A stretch of 20,000 nucleotides of DNA from the IMG/VR virus record IMGVR_UViG_3300016657_000021, positions 46,959-66,958 of that record, one strand, 5' to 3'. The position numbers were made by a program, and so were the translations under genes. The stretch comes from an uncultured virus (IMG/VR IMGVR_UViG_3300016657_000021). Lineage: Duplodnaviria > Heunggongvirae > Uroviricota > Caudoviricetes. Each line of letters opens with the position of its first letter. Within the stretch, counting starts at the first letter, position 1. Below are positions 1 through 16,775 of the stretch, one piece after another. The notes below the pieces were generated by a model that saw only the letters and a list, made by a program, of their open reading frames with translations, made no database searches and had not been told where the DNA came from.

Positions 1-2350
1 TCTCCGGAATCATGCGAGCCAGCATCTGCACGTTGCGCACCATAAACTGCACCAGCTCGTGCCCGGCTACTGCGAAATTCTGATGCAGCGACTTGACGAT
101 CTCGATCTCGTGCGGCTCCCAGTTCAGCACGTCGTTCATGATGAACTCCAGTACACGACGCAGTTCGCCTTCCGCAGCGTGCTTCTGCGCTCCGGTGAAG
201 TGGTCTACGACGTGCGTATTGGACGACATGATCGACATGCCTGCCCACGTTGACAGGTTCAGACGTTCCTTGTTGGTGCCGGACTCCATCCGTTCCTTGC
301 CCTTGCCTTCCGTCATGTCCAGCACGTACGCCGAAAACCACTCGAAGTCCTTGCGGTTCTTGGCCGTGATCTCGTCGGTGATGAGCGGCAGGCTTCGCAG
401 TAGGCCGAGGCGCTGCTGCATGGCGACAGCCGAGGTGCCTTTACTGGTGCGGTAGTGCACCGGATGCCCCCACACAGAAGCCGCAGCTTCCAGCGCCAGC
501 GTCTTACCAGTGCCGGAGTATGTCGAGCCGCAGTGCGCCGTTAGGCCGTTGATTCCTGTGAAGCGCATGAGCGGAGCGCCAGCACCGAGGAGCATCACCG
601 CAACGTGCTTGTAGTGTTTCTTTTTAATTAACAGGTTGATGAATTCCCGCCACGCGGCCAGCGTACCTGTCGGCTTAGTGTGGGCAACGATGTTCTCCAG
701 CCCCGGCATCGGCACGTCGAACTCGCCATCCGGGGTGTAAATCTTCCCGGCGAACACGAACGTATCGTCGGCCTGCCAGCCACACGCATCGGGAACCTTG
801 ACCGGAATTTTCTCGGTACTGATCTTCTCGACGCAGGCGCGTACGTAGTCGAACAGATTCTTGTCATTGCCCGAGCCGAACGCCGCGACGATGTTCTGGT
901 TGGCAAGGTGCTTGGTCGTTTCCTCTTTGCTGACAATGGACTTCTGCGGCAGAGTAATCTGCATGGCTTGGCCGTTACGGATCGCCGTCAGGTGGATCAG
1001 GTGCTCGCCGTGTACGTTCAAGATGTCGACCGGGAACAGGTCGTACGGCAGAAGTAGTATCTGGCGCTTGATCTTGTTGCCGTCTGCATCCTCATCGTCT
1101 CGCTCTTGGAAAACGCCGCCTTGCTTGCCGTAGGCATACCCGCGAGGCGGTTCCGGGCGCAGGATCTCCCGCGCCTTGTCTTCGACCGTTACCTCGATTG
1201 TCTTCTCGGCAACTTCAACCGCATACTCACGGCCAAGCGCGAGCGGGTTGGTGATCTTGCCCCAGTGCTTGCACGATGGGCAAACGCCGGGGTTCTCCGC
1301 ATCGAACTTGGTGCAGGGGTATGGCCCCTTGATCTCGCGCAGCTTGGTGCGCATCCGGTCTTCGCTGTACGGGTGCAGCTGCGTCAGCCACAGCACCGCC
1401 TTGTCGCCATCCTTGCACTTCTGAGCGATGGACATGTGTGCCCGCCAAAGCGGTTCCATGCCATCATCCTGCGCGTGCTCGACGTAGTGCTCCAGCTGGC
1501 CGCAGCCAGTTCCTTCCTTCGTGCGTTTGAAGATTTTCTTGTACGACGTTTCGGTGTTCTCGAACAGCTTGACCGCCGTGGCCGTGGTAGCCAGCGCGGT
1601 TGTGGTCGGACGGCTTCCCGGTAACTCGATGACATTGGCTGGCGGCAAAGGTTTGGACTCATAGGCTGTGCCTACCAGTTCCCGATTGACGATAGCTTTT
1701 ATGTCCTCGAAGTCGAACAGGTCGCCTTCGTTCATGAAACGCACGTTGGTCGTGCCGCGAACCTTTTTGCCGTCCTTCACGCCGTTGTTGATCGTGCCCG
1801 GAATGCGCAGCACACGGGCAGCGTCGCCCGTCACGTTCGGGTCGATCTGCAGCCCTTTGACGAAACACAGGCGCTTGAACTGTTCGGCCACAGGCTTCCA
1901 CTCGGAAACCGGAATGGCCTCCTTCAACACCCAGTATGCGTGCACACCGCCGCCTGAATGGACGTACCACGGCCTGCCCAACCCGGACAGTCCGACTTCC
2001 TCAGAGAAGCGCTCAATTGCCGCGAACCCGTCTTTCGGTGACGGGTATGCCTTCGTCTTGATTACGCCATCAGCGTTGGGGATGTCCTTCGTGTGGTTGC
2101 AGTCAACGTCAACGGCGATGCACTTAATCATATGTGCGTTCGCCGCCGTGCGCTTACCGCTCACCTGCATGGTGGCAAGTGAGAAGTATGTGTCGTAGCC
2201 CGATAGCTTGTACCGCTCGATAACCGCGTCCGCGTCTTGCAGCTTCTCCTTAAACTGGTGTTCTTTTTTCTTTGTTGTCAGTTCCACCACGCAGTAATAC
2301 CCGTTCCCTTCGGGTGGTAGAACCGCCGCCATAAAGTCGAGCGGGGTCAT
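1..2350 (-). CDS. Phage primase-helicase (N-terminal AEP/RepB-type primase, Cys-rich middle domain, C-terminal DUF927-type ATPase); 3' end runs off the window
   Basis: Not in the ORF track, consistent with no stop before the window edge. Hand translation from ATG 2350 gives MTPLDFMAAVLPPEGNGYYC..., the primase motifs IAVDVD, SGGGVHAYW and ARVLRIPGT, then GPYPC...CPSCKHWGKI, an in-frame Walker A SGTGKT (about 500-517) and a Walker B LITDE. Confidence 0.9.
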   Translation of the reverse strand, partial: MTPLDFMAAVLPPEGNGYYCVVELTTKKKEHQFKEKLQDADAVIERYKLSGYDTYFSLATMQVSGKRTAANAHMIKCIAVDVDCNHTKDIPNADGVIKTKAYPSPKDGFAAIERFSEEVGLSGLGRPWYVHSGGGVHAYWVLKEAIPVSEWKPVAEQFKRLCFVKGLQIDPNVTGDAARVLRIPGTINNGVKDGKKVRGTTNVRFMNEGDLFDFEDIKAIVNRELVGTAYESKPLPPANVIELPGSRPTTTALATTATAVKLFENTETSYKKIFKRTKEGTGCGQLEHYVEHAQDDGMEPLWRAHMSIAQKCKDGDKAVLWLTQLHPYSEDRMRTKLREIKGPYPCTKFDAENPGVCPSCKHWGKITNPLALGREYAVEVAEKTIEVTVEDKAREILRPEPPRGYAYGKQGGVFQERDDEDADGNKIKRQILLLPYDLFPVDILNVHGEHLIHLTAIRNGQAMQITLPQKSIVSKEETTKHLANQNIVAAFGSGNDKNLFDYVRACVEKISTEKIPVKVPDACGWQADDTFVFAGKIYTPDGEFDVPMPGLENIVAHTKPTGTLAAWREFINLLIKKKHYKHVAVMLLGAGAPLMRFTGINGLTAHCGSTYSGTGKTLALEAAASVWGHPVHYRTSKGTSAVAMQQRLGLLRSLPLITDEITAKNRKDFEWFSAYVLDMTEGKGKERMESGTNKERLNLSTWAGMSIMSSNTHVVDHFTGAQKHAAEGELRRVLEFIMNDVLNWEPHEIEIVKSLHQNFAVAGHELVQFMVRNVQMLARMIPE

Positions 2351-2359
2351 AGCAGTCCT

Positions 2360-2545
2360 TTAGAACAAGGGGAGTTGGCGCGGATCTCTGTATGGCGCGT
2401 AGCCGTGTTCATTTACTTCGCGGTCAAGGCGACGCACGAGTTCTTTCTGCCACTCGATGGGCAGCGACTTTCCTTGAAGCAGCGCGAGATCCGCATGCTG
2501 GATCAGCTCTTTCGTTGTCAGGCTTCCAGATTGTACAAATGACAT
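2360..2545 (-). CDS. Hypothetical phage protein (61 aa)
   Basis: ORF fills the gap between the HTH and primase genes; start moved to ATG 2545 behind GGAGAGAAAT. Confidence 0.7.
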   Translation of the reverse strand: MSFVQSGSLTTKELIQHADLALLQGKSLPIEWQKELVRRLDREVNEHGYAPYRDPRQLPLF

Positions 2546-2799
2546 ATTTCTCTCCATGCTTCGTCAGCGGTTTTCGATTTGGACATGATCTTCGTCAGCA
2601 GCTCTACACGCTCTTGGTAGCCGACAAACACTTCGGTCTGCCCGGTCATCCAATTATATACGGTCTGTCGTGTGACCCCGAGGGCTTTTGCGATCTTGGT
2701 CACTGGAAAGTCCAGATAGATCGCCCATCGTCCGAGCACTACGCCGGGGGTCTTTGGCGCGGCTGAGACGGCATCAATGATTTTTTGTGAGTAGGCCAT
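2518..2799 (-). CDS. Cro/XRE-like helix-turn-helix DNA-binding protein
   Basis: Motif VTKIAKALGVTRQTVYNWMTG is a typical HTH. Confidence 0.85.
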   Translation of the reverse strand: MAYSQKIIDAVSAAPKTPGVVLGRWAIYLDFPVTKIAKALGVTRQTVYNWMTGQTEVFVGYQERVELLTKIMSKSKTADEAWREICHLYNLEA

Positions 2800-2819
2800 G
2801 ATCGTGTGTGGTTAGGGGT

Positions 2820-2897
2820 GCGGGGTCACTGGCCTACGGAGCAAAGCCTGAAAGGATGCCAGCCCCCGCTGCCGGTGTTATGTGCGCCACCTCCGGC
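2820..2897 (-). ncRNA. Candidate structured RNA (two GC-rich hairpins) between tRNA-Gly and the HTH gene
   Basis: Minus strand GCCG-GAG-GTG...CAC-CGGC (2897-2871) and GCGGGG-GCTGGC...GCCAGT-GA-CCCCGC (2869-2820); no U-tract follows. Confidence 0.4.
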
Positions 2898-2906
2898 TGG
2901 GCTATT

Positions 2907-2982
2907 TGGAGCGGGTGATCGGTTTCGAACCGACGACATTCTGCTTGGAAGGCAGACGCTCTACCTGCTGAGCTACACCCGC
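2907..2982 (-). tRNA. tRNA-Gly (anticodon TCC) with encoded CCA
   Basis: 76 nt GCGGGTGTAGCTCAGCAGGTAGAGCGTCTGCCTTCCAAGCAGAATGTCGTCGGTTCGAAACCGATCACCCGCTCCA; acceptor stem GCGGGTG/CACCCGC, anticodon arm TCTGC-CTTCCAA-GCAGA, T-loop GTTCGAA. Confidence 0.97.
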
Positions 2983-2983
2983 G

Positions 2984-3793
2984 TTATTTCAAGTTGATAA
3001 ACGGAACTGCACCGCCAGCGCTCGTGACGGGCAGCTTGCCGTCCCACTTCTCGATGGCCTTCAGCTCAACATACTCCTTGCCGCCCTGCGCTGCGATTGC
3101 CTGCGCCTTGATGCGAATAGCATCGGCATCGCCCTGCGCTTCGACACGCTTGCGCTCTGCTTCAGCCTTCGCCAACTCGACTTCTTTTTGCTTTGCAGCA
3201 ATCTGGAAGTTGCGGTTTGCCGCCTCCTTGATCGCACGCTCCAGCGCCGGGTCGGTCACAAGGTTGCGTACATTAGCAGATCGGACGAAGAACCAGCCTT
3301 TTCCCACGGACGCGTCGAGGTCTTTCTGCAACAGGTCTACGATCTTCGCGGCGATGGCTGTGCGCTCCATATGCACCGTGTCGGAGCCGTACTCGCTGAT
3401 GACGTTGTAGATGGTTTCGCGTGCCTGACGGATGACGTAGTTGTTGCCGACGCGCACGCCTTCTTCGTGCGCGTACTCGGTTAAGTCTCCCGGCCAACGC
3501 GTGATGATGGCTGCGGCTTTGTTCGGGTCGATCTGGTAGAAGATGTCGATGTCGAGATCGGCAAGCGTGATCTTGTCTTTTGTCTGCGGCTTCATGTCTT
3601 GCAGCGACAGGCCGAGTTCTTTGGCGCTTACTTCGGTGACGCGCTTGAACATCGTGAAGTACACGCCCGGAGGCATGGTTTCGGTCTTCACTTGACCGAG
3701 GGTGGATTCCACACCGATGTTGCCGGTGTCGATCTGCGTACAGGCGGTGAGCGAAGTCACCATTGCCAATACTGCCCAAGTGCTTTTCTGCAT
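2984..3793 (-). CDS. SPFH/band 7 (prohibitin-like) domain lipoprotein
   Basis: Start moved to ATG 3793 behind AGGAGAAGCAA; signal peptide ending in lipobox LTA-C; C-terminal coiled coil (AEAERKRVEAQGDADAIRIKA) and IEKWDGKLP, typical of phage SPFH proteins. Confidence 0.9.
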   Translation of the reverse strand: MQKSTWAVLAMVTSLTACTQIDTGNIGVESTLGQVKTETMPPGVYFTMFKRVTEVSAKELGLSLQDMKPQTKDKITLADLDIDIFYQIDPNKAAAIITRWPGDLTEYAHEEGVRVGNNYVIRQARETIYNVISEYGSDTVHMERTAIAAKIVDLLQKDLDASVGKGWFFVRSANVRNLVTDPALERAIKEAANRNFQIAAKQKEVELAKAEAERKRVEAQGDADAIRIKAQAIAAQGGKEYVELKAIEKWDGKLPVTSAGGAVPFINLK

Positions 3794-3806
3794 TTGCTTC
3801 TCCTGT

Positions 3807-3998
3807 TTAAAGAATATTGATTGCGCGGTTGTAGAACATGACAAACAACGCGCCAGTGATGAGCGCCAGAATGATGCCGACTCCTGCTACGTGGCGCTTG
3901 GTGAACCGCTTGAACGTACGCTTATCGCGCTTCGCTGCATACGACCACACGAAGTAAAACGACAGCGAGAACAGCAGGAGCATTACGAAGTGCTTCAT
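3807..3998 (-). CDS. Small membrane protein (two hydrophobic segments)
   Basis: RBS GGAGAAGCA; segments FVMLLLFSLSFYFVW and VAGVGIILALITGALFVMF separated by a basic loop. Confidence 0.8.
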   Translation of the reverse strand: MKHFVMLLLFSLSFYFVWSYAAKRDKRTFKRFTKRHVAGVGIILALITGALFVMFYNRAINIL

Positions 3999-4016
3999 TG
4001 CTTCTCCGTTAAAGGT

Positions 4017-4077
4017 GGGGTACTCAGCTGGTTATCCTTACCCACAGTTAATAAAATTACCCGTGTGCCTTTCCCCC
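4017..4077 (-). ncRNA. Candidate structured RNA with a loop-E/sarcin-ricin-like internal loop and a three-way junction
   Basis: Minus strand GGGG-GAA-A-GGC...GCT-G-AGTA-CCCC closing stem enclosing hairpins CACGG-G-TAAT-TTT-ATTA-A-CTGTG and GGT-AAGGATA-ACC. Confidence 0.45.
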
Positions 4078-4086
4078 GTGACTCAC

Positions 4087-5073
4087 TTACTCTTCATCGT
4101 CCCAGTCAGCAACGATGTCGGCCAGTGCCGACTTCTTCTCCGGAACCGCGTTGGTCTTCACAGACTCTTTGCGAACTTCCGGCTCGCCGTCATCTTCAAC
4201 GACTTCAGCTTTGGCCTTCTTGGTGGCTTTCTTTTTCGTCTCAGCGACGGCAGCAGCTTCGTCTTCGTCGAATGCTTCAGCGACAGTCTGCTTCGCGGCT
4301 TTCGGTGCCGAACCTGTAAGGGCAGGTGCAGCGGCGGGCTTAGCGCCATCAACCTGCGCCGGAGTCATGACGATGGCCTTCTTTGCATCCGTCGTTTCAG
4401 CTTGACGCAGCACAATCTCGTACTCGTCATCGGTCAGCCAGCGCATCGGCTGGAAGAACAGCTTGGGGGCTTCTGCTGCGGTATCGAAGCGCATGCGGGT
4501 GACGATCTGCTCCGGGTTGATCGGCGGGGTCTGCGCGGCCAGATAGCGTGCAAACGCTTGCAGCGGGCGCTTGTCGCCTTCTTCCTTGCCGAAGATCGAC
4601 GTAGCAGGCAGCGTCAGCTGCATCACGTCACCGTCCGGGTTGTTCGCCAGCACCACAGCGAGGCGCTGCTGGTAGCGGCATGCACGGCTGTTTTTCTGGC
4701 CGGAACCTGCGACGTTCTGCGGGCAGCTCATGCAAGCGCTGGCTTGCGGGTTCTCGATGGATGCGTCCGGCTTCTCACCGTCGTTCGACCAGCAGTCCGG
4801 TGCAGTCGGGGTAGCATCGGCATCGTACTTCGCCATGTAGAACGTACGGGCGACTTTCGGCGCTGCCTTGACGATGATGACATCCAGATGGCGGTCATCA
4901 ATAGCGCCCACCTGCTCGCCGTTGGCGATGAGGCGGAACACACCACCCTTGATCGAAATGCGCTTGCTGTTGCTGCCGCCGCCGGTAAGGGCTTTTGCGG
5001 TATCCGACAGGGCGTTGTTGCGTGCGAATGCCGGGACGTTAGCGGAGGGGTTGAATACGGCTACGTTGCTCAT
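4087..5073 (-). CDS. Putative ssDNA-binding/annealing protein
   Basis: Start moved to ATG 5073 behind AAAGGAAAACACAAC; Cys cluster (DCWS...CMSCPQN...AC), Ala/Lys/Glu-rich linker and acidic tail DWDDEE; lies inside the replication module. Confidence 0.65.
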   Translation of the reverse strand: MSNVAVFNPSANVPAFARNNALSDTAKALTGGGSNSKRISIKGGVFRLIANGEQVGAIDDRHLDVIIVKAAPKVARTFYMAKYDADATPTAPDCWSNDGEKPDASIENPQASACMSCPQNVAGSGQKNSRACRYQQRLAVVLANNPDGDVMQLTLPATSIFGKEEGDKRPLQAFARYLAAQTPPINPEQIVTRMRFDTAAEAPKLFFQPMRWLTDDEYEIVLRQAETTDAKKAIVMTPAQVDGAKPAAAPALTGSAPKAAKQTVAEAFDEDEAAAVAETKKKATKKAKAEVVEDDGEPEVRKESVKTNAVPEKKSALADIVADWDDEE

Positions 5074-5862: not shown

Positions 5863-6369
5863 TCAAATTTTTACTGCGTGCGTATGCAGCGCAGTTTCCG
5901 CTGCTTTTCTTGCGTCAATCGCCTCCTGCATGCTAGAAAAGCAACCGAGCAGCACTATGCGCCCCTCGTGCTGTATGCGAGCACGCCACTTTTTCATACG
6001 CTTGTTCCATCCAACGCCCTTAACCCCGGTGAGGCTGTTTGCGTATGCTTTCTTGTTTTGCTGGTTTTCACCGTGTGTAGCTTCGCGCAAGTTGTTAATA
6101 CGATTGTTACTTGGGTTACGGTCTATGTGGTCTAAAAACCCTGCGGGGGCTTCACCGTACACATATACCCACGCAATACGATGCAACTTGTAGTCTGCGC
6201 CGTCGATGCGTATGTACCAGTAGCCAGTGCTATGTCTCCAGCCTGCGACAGTTCCGGCACGACGTGTTCCTCGCGATACACGCCAAGTGAAGCACCCCGT
6301 TGAAGCGTCGTAGTGCAGCAGCTCGCGAATACGCTCGGCAGGCGGTAAGGGTGTTAGTTTGCGCGACAT
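5863..6369 (-). CDS. HNH homing endonuclease with C-terminal AP2 domain
   Basis: LHRIAW...LDHIDRNPSNNRINNLREAT..EN..N (HNH core) followed by TGVKGVGW...KWRARI...LLGCF...EAIDAR (AP2). Confidence 0.92.
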   Translation of the reverse strand: MSRKLTPLPPAERIRELLHYDASTGCFTWRVSRGTRRAGTVAGWRHSTGYWYIRIDGADYKLHRIAWVYVYGEAPAGFLDHIDRNPSNNRINNLREATHGENQQNKKAYANSLTGVKGVGWNKRMKKWRARIQHEGRIVLLGCFSSMQEAIDARKAAETALHTHAVKI

Positions 6370-8867: not shown

Positions 8868-9193
8868 TCAAACCTCGCAGACTTAACAGCGTTGTACAGG
8901 CGGCTGGCAAACTCGGTGACAAACGCTTCGTCTTCGTTGAGCCTGTGCCGCCCCATGTCGAACAGGATTGCATGCGTCAGCTCGTGCCAGAACGAGTCGC
9001 CCATCTGATCCTCAGTGAACTTGCGTCCGGTCTTGTTGCTGCGCTGCCCTATCTCGATCTTGCGTCGGTCGTAATGCACACGCGCCATGTCGCCGCGTTG
9101 GATCATCGTCTCTACTATGTCGATGGAGTACCGCTTCTTGCCGACGCGAATGCTTCGCGGTAGCTCCAACCTTCGTCGTGTTCTGTGGTTCAT
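8864..9193 (-). CDS. Small HExxH zincin-like protein (putative metallopeptidase)
   Basis: SFWHELTHAIL followed by DEAFV; RBS AAAGGAGAAGC; ATGA overlap with the next gene. Confidence 0.7.
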   Translation of the reverse strand: MNHRTRRRLELPRSIRVGKKRYSIDIVETMIQRGDMARVHYDRRKIEIGQRSNKTGRKFTEDQMGDSFWHELTHAILFDMGRHRLNEDEAFVTEFASRLYNAVKSARFE

Positions 9194-9202
9194 GCTTCTC
9201 CT

Positions 9203-12103
9203 TTACTTTTTAGCCAAGCCGTAGCGCTTGTGTACACCGCCTTCAACTGCCAGCGGAATGCCGGGCATGTACTTCGGTTCGACGATCATCTGTTCGAGGA
9301 TCCACTTACGCCCTTCTTCCGCTTGTTCTTCCGGCACCATCACGATTTGTTCGTCATGCACCGACCCGACAACAGGGTAGCGCTTGAACGTACGCAGCAT
9401 GCCGTCCGTCATGACGATGCGACTTGCCCCTTGAATCACGTTGTTTGTGATCTTTCCGGGGTATAGCTTCGTGTCGTCTTTGCCGTAGACGTACTGGTAC
9501 CTGCCGCGATCATCTTTTGTGCGGCGAAGGTTCGGGTAGCGCAAGCTCATGCCGTTCGGAAGCACAATCTCTTCCTTGCGGAACACAAGACATTTATACC
9601 TGAACTCCTCGCCGCCGTAAAGCGCTGTCTCCAGCAGCGTGCCGCACATCTCCCAGAACGTCGTGACCGGGTGCGCTGTCTCCCGGTAGATGTCAATGAT
9701 CTTCTTTGCTGCAACGCAATGAATCAGCAGTTCCTTGGTCGTGCAGGTGTGCGGGATGGCTTCCAGCTTCTTCACGTTCTCGTCCCAGTCAAGGAATTTC
9801 TCGACATATTGCCGAGTCACTCCGAGCTTCTTGGCGAACGCCATGTCATAGCGCACCGGAGGAGCGCCGAGGAAACCGACCAGCAGCTGCGCGGCGAAGC
9901 TCGCCCAGCCCAACCCATAACCGCAGTTGTGTACGATCAACGGGCCTTCACTGGTCAGAATTGTGTAGCGGTTTCTCGGCCCTGCATAAGCGAGATCGTA
10001 AGTCTGCATTCTCTGCTTCAAGGGTTGCAATGCGTCGGTTAAGCTGTTCGATTGCTCGTGCGCTATATGGGCGTTTGTTTTTCCCATTCTCACTGCGCGT
10101 GACGAAGCGAAGGTTGCCGGGAACATACCCACCGTTGTTGTCGATGCGATCAAGCTGCAGTTCCGGCGCATCAGATCCCGGTAGTGCAACGAGATACCGC
10201 AAGAATTCAGCGCGATCTGCGACCCATGCCGGGTGCACAGCAATTCCCCGGCCCCCATAATCGGGATACGTAGCACTGTCCGGGTTAGTGCAGCGGACAA
10301 TGATTGCGCTAATACGGTCAAGCAATCGGTCACGGTGCTCGCGATTTGGGCAAATAGCCGCGTACCCTGCAGCAACCATGCGTGTTTGCGTTGCTTTCTT
10401 TTTTGCGCAACCGTTGCAGCGTGTAGTTCTTCCTGCCCGCAGATTGGCACGCTCGACGAAACCCACCCACCCACATGAACAGCGCATTTGTGGTTGGTAA
10501 GCAAACCTGCCTTTCCATTCGGGGCCATGCGGTCGTCGTTCCCACCCGATACAGGTAAGTTCGCCAATGACAGCCCCGACTTCAAAAGGGAAGGGTTTGC
10601 TAGGGCCGCGCTCCATGCCACCCACCCACGTTCCGTCAGGATTTCGTGATCCGAAGTCGCGCTTATCCCGTATTGCGTAAGAACTTCTTTCTCGCCCTGT
10701 GGCACTAGCCCCTGATGCTTTACCCATGCTTCACCATCCCATACCATATCCGTAGCCTGAACCTGTACTATAGGTACCCAACCGCGCTGTGTCAACACCG
10801 GGGTGTCCGCACCGAAGCAGCCCAGCAGCGCCGACTTAGCCGACTGCCGTAGATCCGGGTGGCTGTCCTTGGTCATGCCGGGAATGTTGAACATCTGCGA
10901 GCCGAACTGCGCGTAGGCATCCTGCCCCGACCGGAAGATGTTCAGCAGGTCTTCGTAGTCCGACATCCACGCCAGCACACGCGGCTCAATCTGCGACAAG
11001 TCGCCAACCACCAGCACGTACCCGTCCGGAGCCATGATCGCCTTACGCAAAAACGACCCACGCTTTAAGTTCTGCATGTTGATGGCCGAACCCTTGGCGG
11101 CAGCATAGCGGCCCGTCGCCGCGCCGTAATACGACAGGGGCACAGGTAGCGTGCCCCGATGTGCGATGTCGAGGAAGCGCTGCGCACGCGTACGCTCGGA
11201 CGTTGACTTGACTTTCAGTCGCGCTTCGCAGAGTAGTGCGACATCTTCGTTTTCTCCGTTGAGGAGGGCTTGGAATAGCGCGTCGTTCTTTGCGAGGGCA
11301 AACGTCTGTTCACCAGTCGTTTTACTTGTCTTGAGCGGAGCTGCACAGCCCAAGGATTCCAGAAGAGCCGCAAACTGAGGGTTGCTAGATAGCATCGCAT
11401 CTGTAACACCAAGTCTTGCAAGTAAGCCTTCACGGATTTCCCTTTCTTCGTTGATTCCTTCGGCCAGCATCTCACGATCCAGCACCAGCTTTGGTTGGGT
11501 ATACATCTTCAGCGTCATGTCGATCAGACGCAGCTCGCTCAGCGGATACGGCGGGTAGCTCGTGCCGTCCGGCAGCGGCACCATGCCGTTCAAGCGCTTG
11601 AATATCTCCTCGCACAAGAACACATCGTGTCGGCAGTAGTCGGCCAGCTCTTGCTCGATATGGAACGGCAGTTCGTCAAGGTAGTTCTCGGACGATGCCA
11701 GCCCCTGCCCCTTGTCAGGAAGCTCGAAGTCTTGCGCCAGCTTCTTCAGACTGTTGCCTACTTCAACGCCTCGCAGCGCACGCCCCATAGAGAGCGTGTC
11801 GAAGATGAACGCCGGGTGCGCGTCGTAGTGCCACGCTAGTATGCACACGTCGAACTGCGCGTTCTGCGCGATGACGGCTGTACGGCTCCAGTCAATCGTC
11901 TGCACCCAGTCGTTCAGGTCTTTGCCGCGTACCCATATGGCCTTGCCGGGAGCGCCGAACTCTTTCCAACACAAGCCCCATGCCTTGAAGCGCGGGTCGC
12001 GCACATACTCTTCGTTCGTCTGACACGAGAAGCCAAGCTTTACGCCTCGCCCCCACGCCGTTTCTGCATCAATGACGATTATTCTGTCGTAAGGTTTACT
12101 CAT
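9203..12103 (-). CDS. polA: Family A DNA polymerase with 3'-5' exonuclease domain, interrupted by an intein (966-aa precursor, 668 aa after splicing)
   Basis: Exo motifs IDAET, NAQFD, YCRHD; polymerase motifs NMQNL, A (GDLSQIEPRV), B (RQSAKSALLG|CGYG, split by the intein) and C (SVHDE). Confidence 0.95.
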   Translation of the reverse strand: MSKPYDRIIVIDAETAWGRGVKLGFSCQTNEEYVRDPRFKAWGLCWKEFGAPGKAIWVRGKDLNDWVQTIDWSRTAVIAQNAQFDVCILAWHYDAHPAFIFDTLSMGRALRGVEVGNSLKKLAQDFELPDKGQGLASSENYLDELPFHIEQELADYCRHDVFLCEEIFKRLNGMVPLPDGTSYPPYPLSELRLIDMTLKMYTQPKLVLDREMLAEGINEEREIREGLLARLGVTDAMLSSNPQFAALLESLGCAAPLKTSKTTGEQTFALAKNDALFQALLNGENEDVALLCEARLKVKSTSERTRAQRFLDIAHRGTLPVPLSYYGAATGRYAAAKGSAINMQNLKRGSFLRKAIMAPDGYVLVVGDLSQIEPRVLAWMSDYEDLLNIFRSGQDAYAQFGSQMFNIPGMTKDSHPDLRQSAKSALLGCFGADTPVLTQRGWVPIVQVQATDMVWDGEAWVKHQGLVPQGEKEVLTQYGISATSDHEILTERGWVAWSAALANPSLLKSGLSLANLPVSGGNDDRMAPNGKAGLLTNHKCAVHVGGWVSSSVPICGQEELHAATVAQKRKQRKHAWLLQGTRLFAQIASTVTDCLTVLAQSLSAALTRTVLRIPIMGAGELLCTRHGSQIALNSCGISLHYRDLMRRNCSLIASTTTVGMFPATFASSRAVRMGKTNAHIAHEQSNSLTDALQPLKQRMQTYDLAYAGPRNRYTILTSEGPLIVHNCGYGLGWASFAAQLLVGFLGAPPVRYDMAFAKKLGVTRQYVEKFLDWDENVKKLEAIPHTCTTKELLIHCVAAKKIIDIYRETAHPVTTFWEMCGTLLETALYGGEEFRYKCLVFRKEEIVLPNGMSLRYPNLRRTKDDRGRYQYVYGKDDTKLYPGKITNNVIQGASRIVMTDGMLRTFKRYPVVGSVHDEQIVMVPEEQAEEGRKWILEQMIVEPKYMPGIPLAVEGGVHKRYGLAKK
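9926..10819 (-). mobile_element. Intein (298 aa, residues 429-726 of the polymerase precursor)
   Basis: Block A CFGADTPVLT, block B ISATSDHEIL (TxxH), block F TYDL...NRY, block G LIVHN followed by Cys+1; removal restores motif B KSALLG-CGYG. Confidence 0.95.
9948..10727 (-). CDS. HNH-like homing endonuclease nested out of frame inside the intein (alternative start ATG 10616)
   Basis: IGELT...CSCG...NLRAGRTTRCNGC, RCTNP...YPDYGGRGIAV...W, LDRIDNNGGYVPGNLRFVTRSEN..NKR; the same motifs occur in the free-standing genes at 12096-12572 and 13072-13683. Offset from the polymerase frame is 2 mod 3. Confidence 0.88.
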   Translation of the reverse strand: MGKASGASATGRERSSYAIRDKRDFGSRNPDGTWVGGMERGPSKPFPFEVGAVIGELTCIGWERRPHGPEWKGRFAYQPQMRCSCGWVGFVERANLRAGRTTRCNGCAKKKATQTRMVAAGYAAICPNREHRDRLLDRISAIIVRCTNPDSATYPDYGGRGIAVHPAWVADRAEFLRYLVALPGSDAPELQLDRIDNNGGYVPGNLRFVTRSENGKNKRPYSARAIEQLNRRIATLEAENADLRSRLCRAEKPLHNSDQ

Positions 12104-12572
12104 GTGTTTCTTTCAGAAAGTTGCGTACCAGTTCTTCACGTTCAGCAGACAGTTCGAACCATCGTGTATTGCCTCTGTCTTTTGCCCGCACTTGTTGAAT
12201 CATGTGTGCAGCGGTTGCACGTTTTACGCCGAGACGTTCGGCTAATAACCAGCTTTTGGTTTTTGCGTACGGTCTATTTCGTGCCTGCGTTTCGCGCGTA
12301 GCCCAACGGCAGTTAGACGGCGTATAGTTCTTGGCCGTGTTGATGCGGTCTAGCGTATGCTTGTCCGTTGGCCTTCTTCCCATGTCTTCAAGGAAGGCCG
12401 CAAAAGAACTTTCCCAACGCTTGCACACGCGAATGCCTTTACCACCGTAATACGCGTAGTCTCTTGCTTTCGGGTTATTGCACCGGTTCTTCATCATTTG
12501 CCACGACCGGTACTCTGGCGTGGCGATTCTCTTTCCGTCTACTAAACGGACTTCACCCATCGGCTTTTCCAT
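12096..12572 (-). CDS. Free-standing HNH-like homing endonuclease (YGGxGI / LDRI family)
   Basis: EYRSWQMMKNRCNNP...YYGGKGIRVCKRW...FLEDMG...TLDRINTAKNYTPSNCRWAT...QARNR; start placed at ATG 12572 behind GGGGAG (12560 also possible). Confidence 0.88.
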   Translation of the reverse strand: MEKPMGEVRLVDGKRIATPEYRSWQMMKNRCNNPKARDYAYYGGKGIRVCKRWESSFAAFLEDMGRRPTDKHTLDRINTAKNYTPSNCRWATRETQARNRPYAKTKSWLLAERLGVKRATAAHMIQQVRAKDRGNTRWFELSAEREELVRNFLKETHE

Positions 12573-12596
12573 AGGACTCCCCAATGTACTAGGAAG

Positions 12597-12824
12597 TCAT
12601 AGTGTACCACACCCTTTGCCACGTTTATTCTCCTTGTATTTTTTGTTGTGCAACATGTAGCAGGGCTTGCACCTGCTGGTGTGCTTAGCGCCAGTGCTAC
12701 GCTCGTAGAACTCGCTGTTTGGTTTCTCTTGCCCACAATCGCGGCATACCTTGTGCGTTGCCGGTGCAGGCTTTGCGTGTATCTTTGGCGCAGCAATGAA
12801 GTTGCTTACGATCTGATCCCACAT
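12597..12824 (-). CDS. Small zinc-finger protein
   Basis: KVCRDCGQEKPNSEFY...SRCKPC (CxxC...CxxC); start overlaps the upstream stop. Confidence 0.75.
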   Translation of the reverse strand: MWDQIVSNFIAAPKIHAKPAPATHKVCRDCGQEKPNSEFYERSTGAKHTSRCKPCYMLHNKKYKENKRGKGCGTL

Positions 12825-13093
12825 CAGTTCATCCTCTCCTTTGGTGGTGCGTCCTTGGTGATCGAAAACTCAAGGAACGCGGTGGTGCTCTGCGCTACTA
12901 TGTACGCGTCTTCTTCGTCGCAGTTCATTGTGAAGGTTTCGTCCATGCCGTTCGGATAGCTTATCGTCACGACAGCACGAGGGCCATCTTCCGTGTAGCA
13001 CTTCGACAGGTTTACAACCAGTGTCTTGAAGTGCTCACGGTCTTCTTCGTCCATCGCCTTGATGCGCTGCTCTAGCTCGTCTGCTTCAGACAT
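12824..13093 (-). CDS. Hypothetical acidic phage protein (89 aa)
   Basis: Start moved to ATG 13093 (MSEADEL) behind AAAGGACATCCG. Confidence 0.75.
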   Translation of the reverse strand: MSEADELEQRIKAMDEEDREHFKTLVVNLSKCYTEDGPRAVVTISYPNGMDETFTMNCDEEDAYIVAQSTTAFLEFSITKDAPPKERMN

Positions 13094-13683
13094 CGGATGT
13101 CCTTTCTTTTTGGTGTACCCAAAGCCCGTGCAACCGACCAACCAAGCTTGTTTAGTCTGTCGAACACAACGGATGGCGGTAAGCCCGCATTTCTAGCGGC
13201 CTGCGACATGCAAATACCTTTGTACTTTCGTGTTCGGCGGGTGTTGCGTGCTTGTTCCTCTAGTGGAACCCATCTACAGTTTGCTTTTGCGTACCCTTTA
13301 CGGCTATCTACGCGATCGAGCGAGTAGCCTTCCGGCGGATCCCCCATGTCCGCGTAAAAATTTTCGAATTTCTCCCACCGTTTAGCGACGCTAACTTGTG
13401 TATAGCATGTGTTTCTTTCTCTGTGCGTGTTGCGCACTCTTGCCCACATCCCTTTCCATTTTCGATACGCCGTCGTGTTTGTTGCCCCATGCGTTTTGTT
13501 TTTCATTGCGCGTTGTTCACGGCGCATACACCCGCAAGACTTAGTGTCTCCGCTGCGCAGGTCAACTTGTGCTTTCACCACTTTGTTGCCGCAGTCACAT
13601 ACGCACGCCCACGCAACACGTTTCGTGCCTTCAATTCTGCGTACGACCGTCAAGCGGCCAAAACGAGCACCCTGAAGTTCCAT
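13072..13683 (-). CDS. Free-standing HNH-like homing endonuclease with N-terminal Cys-rich domain
   Basis: GARFGRLTV...CVCDCG...LRSGDTKSCGC...FENFYADMG...SLDRVDSRKGYAKANCRW...QARN; RBS AAAGGAGG. Confidence 0.9.
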   Translation of the reverse strand: MELQGARFGRLTVVRRIEGTKRVAWACVCDCGNKVVKAQVDLRSGDTKSCGCMRREQRAMKNKTHGATNTTAYRKWKGMWARVRNTHRERNTCYTQVSVAKRWEKFENFYADMGDPPEGYSLDRVDSRKGYAKANCRWVPLEEQARNTRRTRKYKGICMSQAARNAGLPPSVVFDRLNKLGWSVARALGTPKRKDIRCLKQTS

Positions 13684-13981
13684 GTGTTTCCTCCTTTATC
13701 TTGCGCAGAGTGTCTTCCAAATCCGTTAGGTTGTCAATGTGTGCTAGAAAGACAACAGCGCCGGCGCGGAAAGCTCTACCGGCATTTCTCGTTTGCAAAA
13801 GAGTAGGCTTCTTCTTACCGTCCGCTTTGCACTCGATCCCTACAAATATCGAATTAACGCAGCACACAATGTCAAATATGCCCATCACACCCATACCGTT
13901 GCTTACCGGCATAAAGTAGTAGACGTCAAGCGTGTCCAGCAGCTTCTTCACCTTCTTCTTAACAAGTCCTTCCGGGGTCAT
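13631..13981 (-). CDS. VRR-NUC domain nuclease
   Basis: MTPEGLVKKKV...GIFDIV...FVGIECKADG.KKPTLLQ, a PD-(D/E)XK VRR-NUC pattern. Confidence 0.88.
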   Translation of the reverse strand: MTPEGLVKKKVKKLLDTLDVYYFMPVSNGMGVMGIFDIVCCVNSIFVGIECKADGKKKPTLLQTRNAGRAFRAGAVVFLAHIDNLTDLEDTLRKIKEETHGTSGCSFWPLDGRTQN

Positions 13982-16629: not shown

Positions 16630-16775
16630 TTAGTCCTCCGTTTTCTGTTTGGCGAAGCAGCGCCGTAGCCGTCGCCGTAGCCNNNNNNNNNNNNNNNNNN
16701 NNNNNNNNNNNNNNNNNNNNNNNNNNNNCCGTAGCCGTAGCCGTCGCCGTCGCCGTAGCCGATTGGCTTAAACAT
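16626..16775 (-). CDS. Small Gly-Tyr/Gly-Asp repeat protein spanning the N gap
   Basis: Not in the track. MFKPIGYGDGDGYGYG[gap]GYGDGYGAASPNRKRRTK; TGATG overlap upstream and ATGA overlap downstream; frame is preserved across the 46 N. Confidence 0.7.
   Translation of the reverse strand: MFKPIGYGDGDGYGYXXXXXXXXXXXXXXXXGYGDGYGAASPNRKRRTK
16662..16760. repeat. Hexanucleotide microsatellite (GGCTAC/GGCGAC on the minus strand) containing a 46-N gap at 16683-16728
   Basis: gccgta and gccgtc units on both sides of the N run. Confidence 0.9.

Follow-up and report, generated by a model that had tools for sequence, protein, structure and literature searches.

Several reports, cited here from the accessible parts of their text, describe inteins whose endonuclease is read in a frame other than that of the host protein. 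The large-terminase (terL) intein of brucellaphages holds an out-of-frame HNH gene (Virol J 2015, PMC4422536). Non-canonical inteins of actinophages carry, 'in reading frame 3', a gene that resembles endonuclease VII, and it has been proposed that they arose when a free-standing endonuclease gene entered an intein (Gosselin, Arsenault, Gogarten, bioRxiv 10.1101/2025.01.02.630785). The cyanobacterial dnaX intein contains a LAGLIDADG endonuclease in the +2 frame (Phillips, DeSimone, Gogarten, bioRxiv 10.64898/2026.09.14.751524), and that preprint credits Gorbalenya 1998, 'Non-canonical inteins'. Also described are the ShiLan-type insertions, out-of-frame HNH genes in phage methylases for which the manner of translation was left as an open question (Arsenault et al. 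2025, PMC11855218), and fractured genes, in which a free-standing endonuclease gene lies between the halves of a split intein (Dassa et al. 2009, PMC2677866). Here we examine a stretch of 20,000 nucleotides (nt), hereafter the window, which comprises bases 46959-66958 of the 66,958-bp record of an uncultured lake phage of the Caudoviricetes (IMG/VR IMGVR_UViG_3300016657_000021); the record has direct terminal repeats and is rated 100% complete. Its family-A DNA polymerase (PolA) gene contains an intein, and within this intein, on the same strand and offset by two nucleotides, lies a complete open reading frame (ORF) for an HNH-like protein of 259 amino acids (aa). This is a further case of the out-of-frame intein endonucleases already described: PMC4422536, the 2025 and 2026 preprints and the P45/P46 pair of phage APSE-1 take away the novelty that the initial annotation had considered possible. 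The present analysis adds an ATG at position 10727 as the onset of the nested gene, a sigma-70-like promoter sequence in the codons of the splicing domain, an arginine in place of the catalytic histidine, and one relative with a fractured, split-intein layout. In our judgement the locus is most probably a mini-intein with an out-of-frame HNH-like gene that is expressed separately, its promoter and start codon lying within the intein, and that drives homing.

In the polymerase frame the insert has the features of a class-1 intein (Table 1). Cysteine codons stand at position 1 (10819..10817) and at position +1 (9925..9923), the final codon encodes asparagine (9928..9926), and C1 together with the block residues T55, H58, D275, H297 and N298 is invariant in an alignment of 35 homologues; in one relative, L049, SN replaces the terminal HN. 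The initial annotation had recognised the intein by its motifs CFGADT, TSDH, TYDL and VHN/C, and both the span and the motifs were reproduced here. A structure model of the intein was built with the 35-sequence alignment, and in it roughly the first 90 and the last 34 residues encoded by the 894-nt frame are predicted to form a HINT fold, joined by an unstructured spacer of about 170 residues that would be the out-of-frame reading of the other gene. Foldseek matched this model to the Ssp DnaB, gp41-1, Spl DnaX, Mtu RecA and Npu DnaE mini-inteins with probability 1.00 (best E value 6e-4), and a profile of the intein finds the Mtu RecA mini-intein by sequence as well (E 1.9e-4). The earlier suggestion to model both frames proved informative, as the polymerase frame gave a mini-intein with a disordered linker and the nested frame a well folded protein; the linker is also unconserved in the polymerase frame, in accordance with the filler loop that had been proposed for the middle of the intein. 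The insertion is in frame, for none of the best 80 relatives of the N-extein (67-78% identity) has the intein, and all are colinear across the site, where RQSAKSALLG is followed by CGYG (52 of 80) or AGYG (28 of 80). Because the splicing blocks are intact and the polymerase is probably essential for phage replication, the intein is probably active in protein splicing, which would remove the whole insert and restore motif B (...AKSALLG-CGYG...).

The dual reading of this insert is not peculiar to the window. A scan of IMG/VR yielded 389 relatives, and among the best 80, which were kept and range from 37 to 71% identity, both frames are open in 79, with the polymerase frame running open through the nested ORF for 361-1308 codons (two of these 79 loci are interrupted by contig ends); the intein ends are visible in the polymerase frame of these viral relatives. 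A protein search of a phage collection returned its top matches inside the DNA polymerase genes of EBPR siphovirus 2, Pseudomonas phage MR14 and Salmonella Jerseyviruses, where a DNA search of the same collection with the polymerase gene had found no match, and protein-level searching was needed. The two-base offset from the annotated polymerase frame recurs in EBPR siphovirus 2, MR14, Ent1 and Ijeoma, and scanning the first three frame by frame revealed an open nested frame of 248-264 codons. The nested ORF lies between the splicing blocks of an intein whose host frame is open, which is the arrangement of an out-of-frame intein endonuclease.

Selection could be followed in each frame. From 81 entries (the 80 loci and the window), 69 had both intein ends found by simple patterns, the remainder being dropped because the pattern missed or the locus was cut (L018, L035, L042, L043, L044, L045, L049, L068, L075, L080, L082 and L083); removal of 9 exact duplicates, with L019 (longer insert) and L047 (nested stop) set aside, left 58 sequences, for which a codon-preserving alignment was made and the entropy of each codon position calculated. 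The most variable base is the third position of the polymerase frame at 10817-10625 and again at 10007-9933, and the third position of the nested frame from about 10600 to 10000. This switch in wobble variability is the pattern that the initial annotation had predicted, namely that purifying selection acts on the nested frame across the central part of the insert and on the polymerase frame at its ends. The distribution of nested-frame stop codons follows the same division. Such stops make up 74 of 1741 codons in alignment columns 0-31 and 4 of 522 in columns 31-40, and they are absent from the 1450 codons of columns 40-65 and from the roughly 11,000 codons between column 65 and the nested stop; the same frame in the exteins has 3.8% stops. 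A second count was restricted to sites where the choice of T, synonymous in the polymerase frame, would introduce a stop into the nested frame. At these sites T is found in 1429 of 7133 cases (20%) in the exteins and in 74 of 302 cases in the intein before column 31, and in none of 275 in columns 40-65 (55 expected) and none of 1300 in the core (260 expected).

These data bear directly on the possibility that the nested ORF is the relic of a dying endonuclease, open through chance or recent origin, inside an ordinary mini-intein with a long linker. Synonymous shuffling of the nested core of the window, repeated 2000 times, preserved an open polymerase frame in 8% of cases, which makes the window no more than suggestive when taken alone, and in one relative (L047, 2850-3625) the polymerase frame is intact while the nested frame has a nonsense codon at 3187, its endonuclease being possibly in decay. 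Both points would suit a relic. Across the 58 relatives the polymerase frame has no stop in the nested core in any sequence, against a shuffle mean of 2.6 and a median open fraction of 1.9%, which sustains the earlier view that openness suggests selection; the third frame of the same core has a mean of 9.2 stops. The nested frame itself has no stop in about 12,500 aligned codons from column 40 onward in relatives down to 37% identity, its third position is the most variable across the middle, 29 of its columns are invariant (35 homologues), and its predicted structure is confident. We consider a relic very unlikely.

An assembly or sequencing artefact, in which two compensating indels displaced an ordinary in-frame intein endonuclease, has no direct support here, though a database record does demonstrate that indels occur in this region. 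In Salmonella phage SS3e (L084, NC_006940, 904-4004) the annotated polymerase consists of two ORFs that flank a third, labelled 'HNH endonuclease', each of the three in a different frame, and its read-through joins the N-terminal domain of the intein in frame with HNH-like sequence; two indels relative to Ent1 are implied, and these are either sequencing errors of an old record or a true variant. For the window, contigs from four runs of four studies were compared. Those of runs X2 and X3 span 9800-10950 with no gaps, the X1 contig is identical over 9800-10764, and pieces from X4, which belongs to another study, have no differences across most of 10004-10950; the sole indel pair, at 9898/9902 (X4, depth 5), falls in the C-extein. 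Runs X1-X3 may be the source of the window DNA and are not independent of it. With contigs gap-free throughout 9948..10727, which answers the concern over paired indels raised by the initial annotation, with the same +2 offset in 79 of 80 metagenomic relatives and in the four phages named above, which are cultured or assembled, and with a wobble pattern that reflects long-term selection in each frame, an artefact is the least credible of the explanations and can be set aside as extremely improbable. The dual coding is real, maintained by selection and widespread.

Several signals within the codons of the N-terminal splicing domain suggest how the nested gene is expressed. Avoidance of nested-frame stops begins at alignment column 31, which corresponds to ATG 10727 and is a start codon in 56 of 58 sequences. 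The column arises from a conserved tryptophan codon of the intein, and the base before that codon is C in only 1 of 57 sequences, as compared with 34% before tryptophan codons of the exteins. The initial annotation had offered 10727 or 10616 as the start; the former is favoured by stop avoidance and by its conservation as a start codon, whereas the latter lacks support. As a conserved start, ATG 10616 with its GGTGG was rejected, since its column is GTG in 30 of 58 sequences and ATG in only 2. At GTG 10625 the column is a start codon in 56 of 58, with a similar bias in the preceding base (C in 2 of 58). A promoter-like element stands 39 nt upstream of the start codon at a fixed place (intein nt 24), scoring at least 9 of 12 consensus matches with the key A and T in 44 of 58 sequences, at least 10 in 37 and perfectly in 4, when the background for a score of at least 9 is 25 in 109,345 extein positions (2.3e-4). 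It is present in 7 of 8 lineages (clusters at 60% identity), and among the named phages MR14, Ent1 and Ijeoma score 9-10 with an ATG at intein nt 92, while EBPR siphovirus 2 scores 7. Codon choice in the element departs from that of the exteins: Leu9 is TTG in 40 of 58 sequences against 13% of extein leucine codons, Ile17 is ATA in 35 of 55 against a background of 13%, and codon 16 ends in T in 49 of 58 against 14%. The hexamers and the start codon are kept by synonymous-site conservation. From this conservation we infer that the element functions as a promoter, and that the 259-aa protein would be made separately, by transcription from the element and translation from ATG 10727, both of which would be encoded by the codons of the splicing domain.

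Programmed ribosomal frameshifting out of the polymerase frame would dispense with independent initiation and give a fusion of N-extein, N-terminal intein domain and HNH-like protein. Ahead of its conserved domain, within the splicing domain, the nested frame has a stop-free stretch of about 35 codons, which would suit a shift site; a -1 slippery heptamer occurs in that stretch in only 3 of 58 relatives, which argues against it, as do the start codon at the onset of openness, the conserved promoter-like element ahead of that start and the relative L045, in which the nested ORF stands while the polymerase frame is closed. We regard frameshifting as quite unlikely, and initiation within the intein as the better account.

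The nested protein belongs to a family of HNH-like proteins. It matches PHROG 374 'HNH endonuclease' (E 1.1e-30, aa 81-224) as well as PHROGs 8790, 2081 and 3377, the last two at E about 2e-20, and its family has three copies in this phage genome and matches in 858 phage records. Two metagenomic proteins of about 445 aa, P0089 and P0095, carry the HNH-like module of this family N-terminally, fused to a ThyX thymidylate synthase body (PF02511), with no intein evident. A profile search with the nested frame found no solved relative by sequence. Its structure model has a mean predicted local distance difference test score (pLDDT) of 80.6, with disorder confined to aa 1-25, and contains a small beta domain around the CxC...CxxC cluster that resembles a zinc ribbon, with C83, C85, C104 and C107 invariant in the 35 homologues. 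Past the cysteine cluster come a helical region, a beta-beta-alpha element (aa 191-217) in which D193, R194, N205, N214 and N217 are invariant, and a long C-terminal helix (aa 223-251) that may serve in dimerisation. This helix, at 9975-10061 on the minus strand, has a weak bZIP/coiled-coil-like Pfam score in 11-14 of 35 homologues, and it is under nested-frame selection though nearing intein block F; the coiled-coil-like Pfam match at aa 224-252 of the nested protein was dismissed as noise. The motif LDRIDN...GNLRF..R.EN..N of the beta-beta-alpha element aligns weakly (E 0.027, probability 1.8%) to LDHIDR...NL...EN of the protein encoded by the HNH_3-type gene at 5863..6369. The listing of HNH-like endonuclease motifs in the initial annotation stands in so far as the motifs are present and PHROG 374 is matched, but the catalytic histidine is replaced by arginine. 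All HNH enzymes studied so far use, to our knowledge, a histidine as the general base.

A number of these and other observations weigh against the reading that we prefer. Relatedness among the 58 sequences, which form 8 lineages at 60% identity, means that the counts overstate the number of independent events. A strict Shine-Dalgarno core precedes ATG 10727 in only 12 of 58 sequences, and for this reason no ribosome-binding site is claimed. The approximately 45 residues after this ATG evolve under the constraint of the polymerase frame and the N-terminus of the model is disordered, so that translation may instead begin downstream, at GTG 10625. No promoter-like match is present in 14 of 58 relatives, which include one whole lineage, and the sigma-70 consensus may not be that of the hosts. 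For the nuclease itself, Pfam and NCBIfam scans of the nested protein and its homologues gave no HNH match, Foldseek of the model against the PDB gave no match at E <= 0.001, and the end of strand 1, where HNH enzymes have their catalytic histidine, is occupied by Arg194; accordingly we term the protein HNH-like, and its nuclease chemistry is not assured.

The latter points are the ones on which a different role could be built, in which the nested protein is no nuclease but a DNA-binding or domesticated protein (a regulator or a targeting partner for another nuclease) and the intein owes its persistence to vertical inheritance and loss rather than to homing. The pair D193-R194 does not vary at the place where D-H is found in HNH_3-type proteins, and the best structural rows are weak and below significance: PacI (Foldseek E 0.42; VIA Z 5.5, root-mean-square deviation 3.0, 83 aligned residues) and the Gme HNH protein (E 0.44). 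The C-terminal coiled-coil/bZIP-like helix resembles a binding module, as does the N-domain, for which VIA-align of aa 43-102 gave a CarD/Tudor-like match (Z 5.3). However, arginine occupies the histidine position in all 35 nested homologues and also in both free-standing paralogues, and is therefore not a sign of decay. The family also behaves like a homing endonuclease gene in its three genome copies, its 858 phage records and its presence in inteins at two PolA sites, and intein presence is scattered among near-identical exteins. A non-nuclease role is improbable on this balance, though it is the strongest of the alternatives, and the nested protein is most likely a nuclease. The more specific proposal, that about 130 nt of splicing-domain codons hold a promoter, a leader of about 32 nt and a start codon through synonymous-site selection and that a nuclease of a large uncharacterised HNH-like class uses arginine for histidine, is one that we put forward tentatively, with somewhat more doubt than conviction.

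As a putative homing endonuclease, the HNH-like protein would cut or nick polymerase alleles that lack the intein, and repair would copy the intein into them. The distribution of the intein is consistent with such mobility. In an extein tree of 500 residues, with 15 intein-bearing and 61 intein-less rows (16 and 74 with duplicates counted; a further 6 intein-less loci lacked sufficient length), the intein must have been gained or lost 8 times or more, starred branches forcing a minimum of 5 of these changes, and none of 500 shuffles was as low. Intein-bearing loci stand beside intein-less ones at support 97-100 (L006 and L120, L016 and L151, and L017 with L158 and L160), and the nearest exteins of the window itself are without intein. 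These nearest exteins are alanine alleles at the position of the intein +1 Cys (in the set L086-L165), and splicing would be impossible in an alanine allele without co-conversion of the flank. For the origin of the arrangement, the invasion of a mini-intein by an endonuclease gene is a plausible hypothesis.

One relative shows what may become of such a locus, or from what it may come. In L045 (1209-4091) the polymerase is fractured into an ORF for the N-terminal parts of PolA and intein (1209..2834), an intact HNH-like ORF (2702..3454) and an ORF for the C-terminal parts of intein and PolA (3354..4091). Both polymerase ORFs are in the same frame, with 7 polymerase-frame stops in the spacer between 2832 and 3339, and the locus has the appearance of a naturally split intein that either arose from the contiguous dual-coded form or gave rise to it.

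The intein and its nested gene lie in a phage replication module, which in the window comprises a primase/helicase, an HNH_3-type gene, a helicase, an exonuclease, the family-A DNA polymerase and two small HNH-like genes. The latter two are the free-standing relatives that had been noticed nearby, and both proved to be paralogues of the nested gene (Table 1). An ORF of 116 aa at 13631-13981 on the minus strand matches the middle of PHROG 93 'endonuclease' (E 2e-9) and overlaps the start of the paralogue at 13072..13683 by about 50 nt; PHROG 93 also matches the intein region weakly. A run of 46 N is present at 16683-16728. An Rfam scan of 9000-12700 found no intron or other RNA family, its sole row being a chance match. 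Near-identical DNA was found in freshwater metagenome runs from several studies, and of the RNA runs only X20 shares words with the stretch (word share 0.06).

Table 1. Positions in the window of the polymerase gene, its intein, the nested gene and neighbouring HNH-type genes.
Feature	Position	Strand	Details
HNH_3-type gene, canonical	5863..6369		motif LDHIDR
Family-A DNA polymerase (PolA) precursor, 966 aa, with intein inside	9203..12103	-	Pfam DNA_pol_A, E 4e-22; PHROG 17, E 2.5e-65
Class-1 intein, 298 codons (PolA codons 429-726)	9926..10819	-	site ...AKSALLG|CGYG... of PolA motif B
N-terminal splicing domain, intein aa 1-90, PolA frame	10550..10819	-	pLDDT 91-98
Spacer, intein aa 92-262, PolA frame	10034..10546	-	open, unconserved, predicted disordered; pLDDT 30-46, without secondary structure
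C-terminal splicing domain, intein aa 265-298	9926..10027	-	blocks F/G, ...VHN; pLDDT 97
Nested ORF, 259 aa, HNH-like putative homing endonuclease	9948..10727	-	frame +2 (2-nt offset from PolA)
Beta-beta-alpha (HNH-like) element, nested aa 190-217	10077..10160	-	LDRIDN...GNLRF..R.EN..N; strands 191-194 and 206-209, helix 211-217
Likeliest nested start codon, ATG	10725..10727	-	alignment column 31: ATG 32, GTG 21, TTG 3 of 58
Alternative downstream starts, GTG 10625 and ATG 10616	10614..10625	-	near onset of conserved nested domain
Sigma-70-like promoter, putative, intein codons 9-18	10767..10795	-	TTGACA, 17 nt, TATAGT; 11/12 consensus matches
Free-standing paralogue of nested gene, 162 aa	12096..12584	-	PHROG 3377, E 2.6e-40; 36% identity to nested protein
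Free-standing paralogue, 203 aa	13072..13683	-	PHROG 374, E 3.7e-50; same N-terminal G.RFG.LT and Cys-cluster region

Our findings point to a large and mostly unannotated lineage of phage polymerase inteins that holds its mobility gene in a second frame. Such genes escape standard gene callers as well as intein surveys designed to find an in-frame endonuclease, and the inserts are mislabelled as mini-inteins without endonuclease. A promoter and start codon embedded in splicing-domain codons would also suggest an answer to the question of expression raised in the 2025 papers, and, if this is true, about 130 nt would serve the HINT fold, a promoter and the nested frame at once. L045 would bridge contiguous and split inteins as a naturally occurring intermediate. 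As members of the lineage occur in culturable Salmonella and Pseudomonas phages, splicing, transcription and homing are directly testable.

The closest known relatives are in Salmonella Jerseyvirus (vB_SenS-Ent1 gp37, HE775250), MR14 (gp36c) and EBPR siphovirus 2 (gp51), which have the same intein family at the same PolA site with an HNH-like gene in frame +2. Their nested genes are 39.5-46.2% identical to that of the window and begin with an ATG at intein nt 92, with promoter-like hexamers in the same place (7-10 of 12), and their records label the insert either simply as polymerase or as an 'intein encoding splicing domains', without an endonuclease. A literature search returned no paper describing a nested gene in this PolA motif-B lineage, the accessible part of PMC8425127 included, and the papers found on APSE mention the intein alone. 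In Hamiltonella phage APSE-1 (L166, NC_000935, 828-3809) the P45 polymerase has homologous intein ends and the same HNH-like family nested within (29% identity, E 6e-17), and P46, inside P45, is annotated 'HNH endonuclease'; it differs from the window in its PolA site, after ...YGGKS and before CENI..., and in the frame of the nested ORF, which is +1 rather than +2. The same pairing of intein family and nuclease family is thus found in two different frame relations.

The remaining comparisons again draw on the accessible parts of the reports. The window resembles the actinophage inteins in having an endonuclease-like gene between the splicing blocks, in the third frame on the same strand, with an in-frame middle that lacks recognisable structure; the actinophage cases differ in their hosts, in their exteins, among which the sole polymerase named is Pol III alpha, and in their nuclease family (core aa 1-67), and the accessible parts of that report contain no promoter or start-site analysis. 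With the dnaX intein it shares an internal +2 ORF, frame-dependent selection and a sporadic distribution, and the origin proposed there is a secondary invasion of a mini-intein, but that intein resides in a cellular host gene and its endonuclease is of the LAGLIDADG family. The brucellaphage case differs in that the host gene is a terminase rather than a polymerase. ShiLan-type insertions likewise hide an out-of-frame HNH gene in an insert that is open in the host frame, but they lack splicing domains, whereas the insert of the window is a recognisable intein. Finally, the fractured-gene layout is absent from the window, where the polymerase frame is open throughout, and is found only in L045, which, as far as the accessible text of PMC2677866 describes that layout, matches it exactly.

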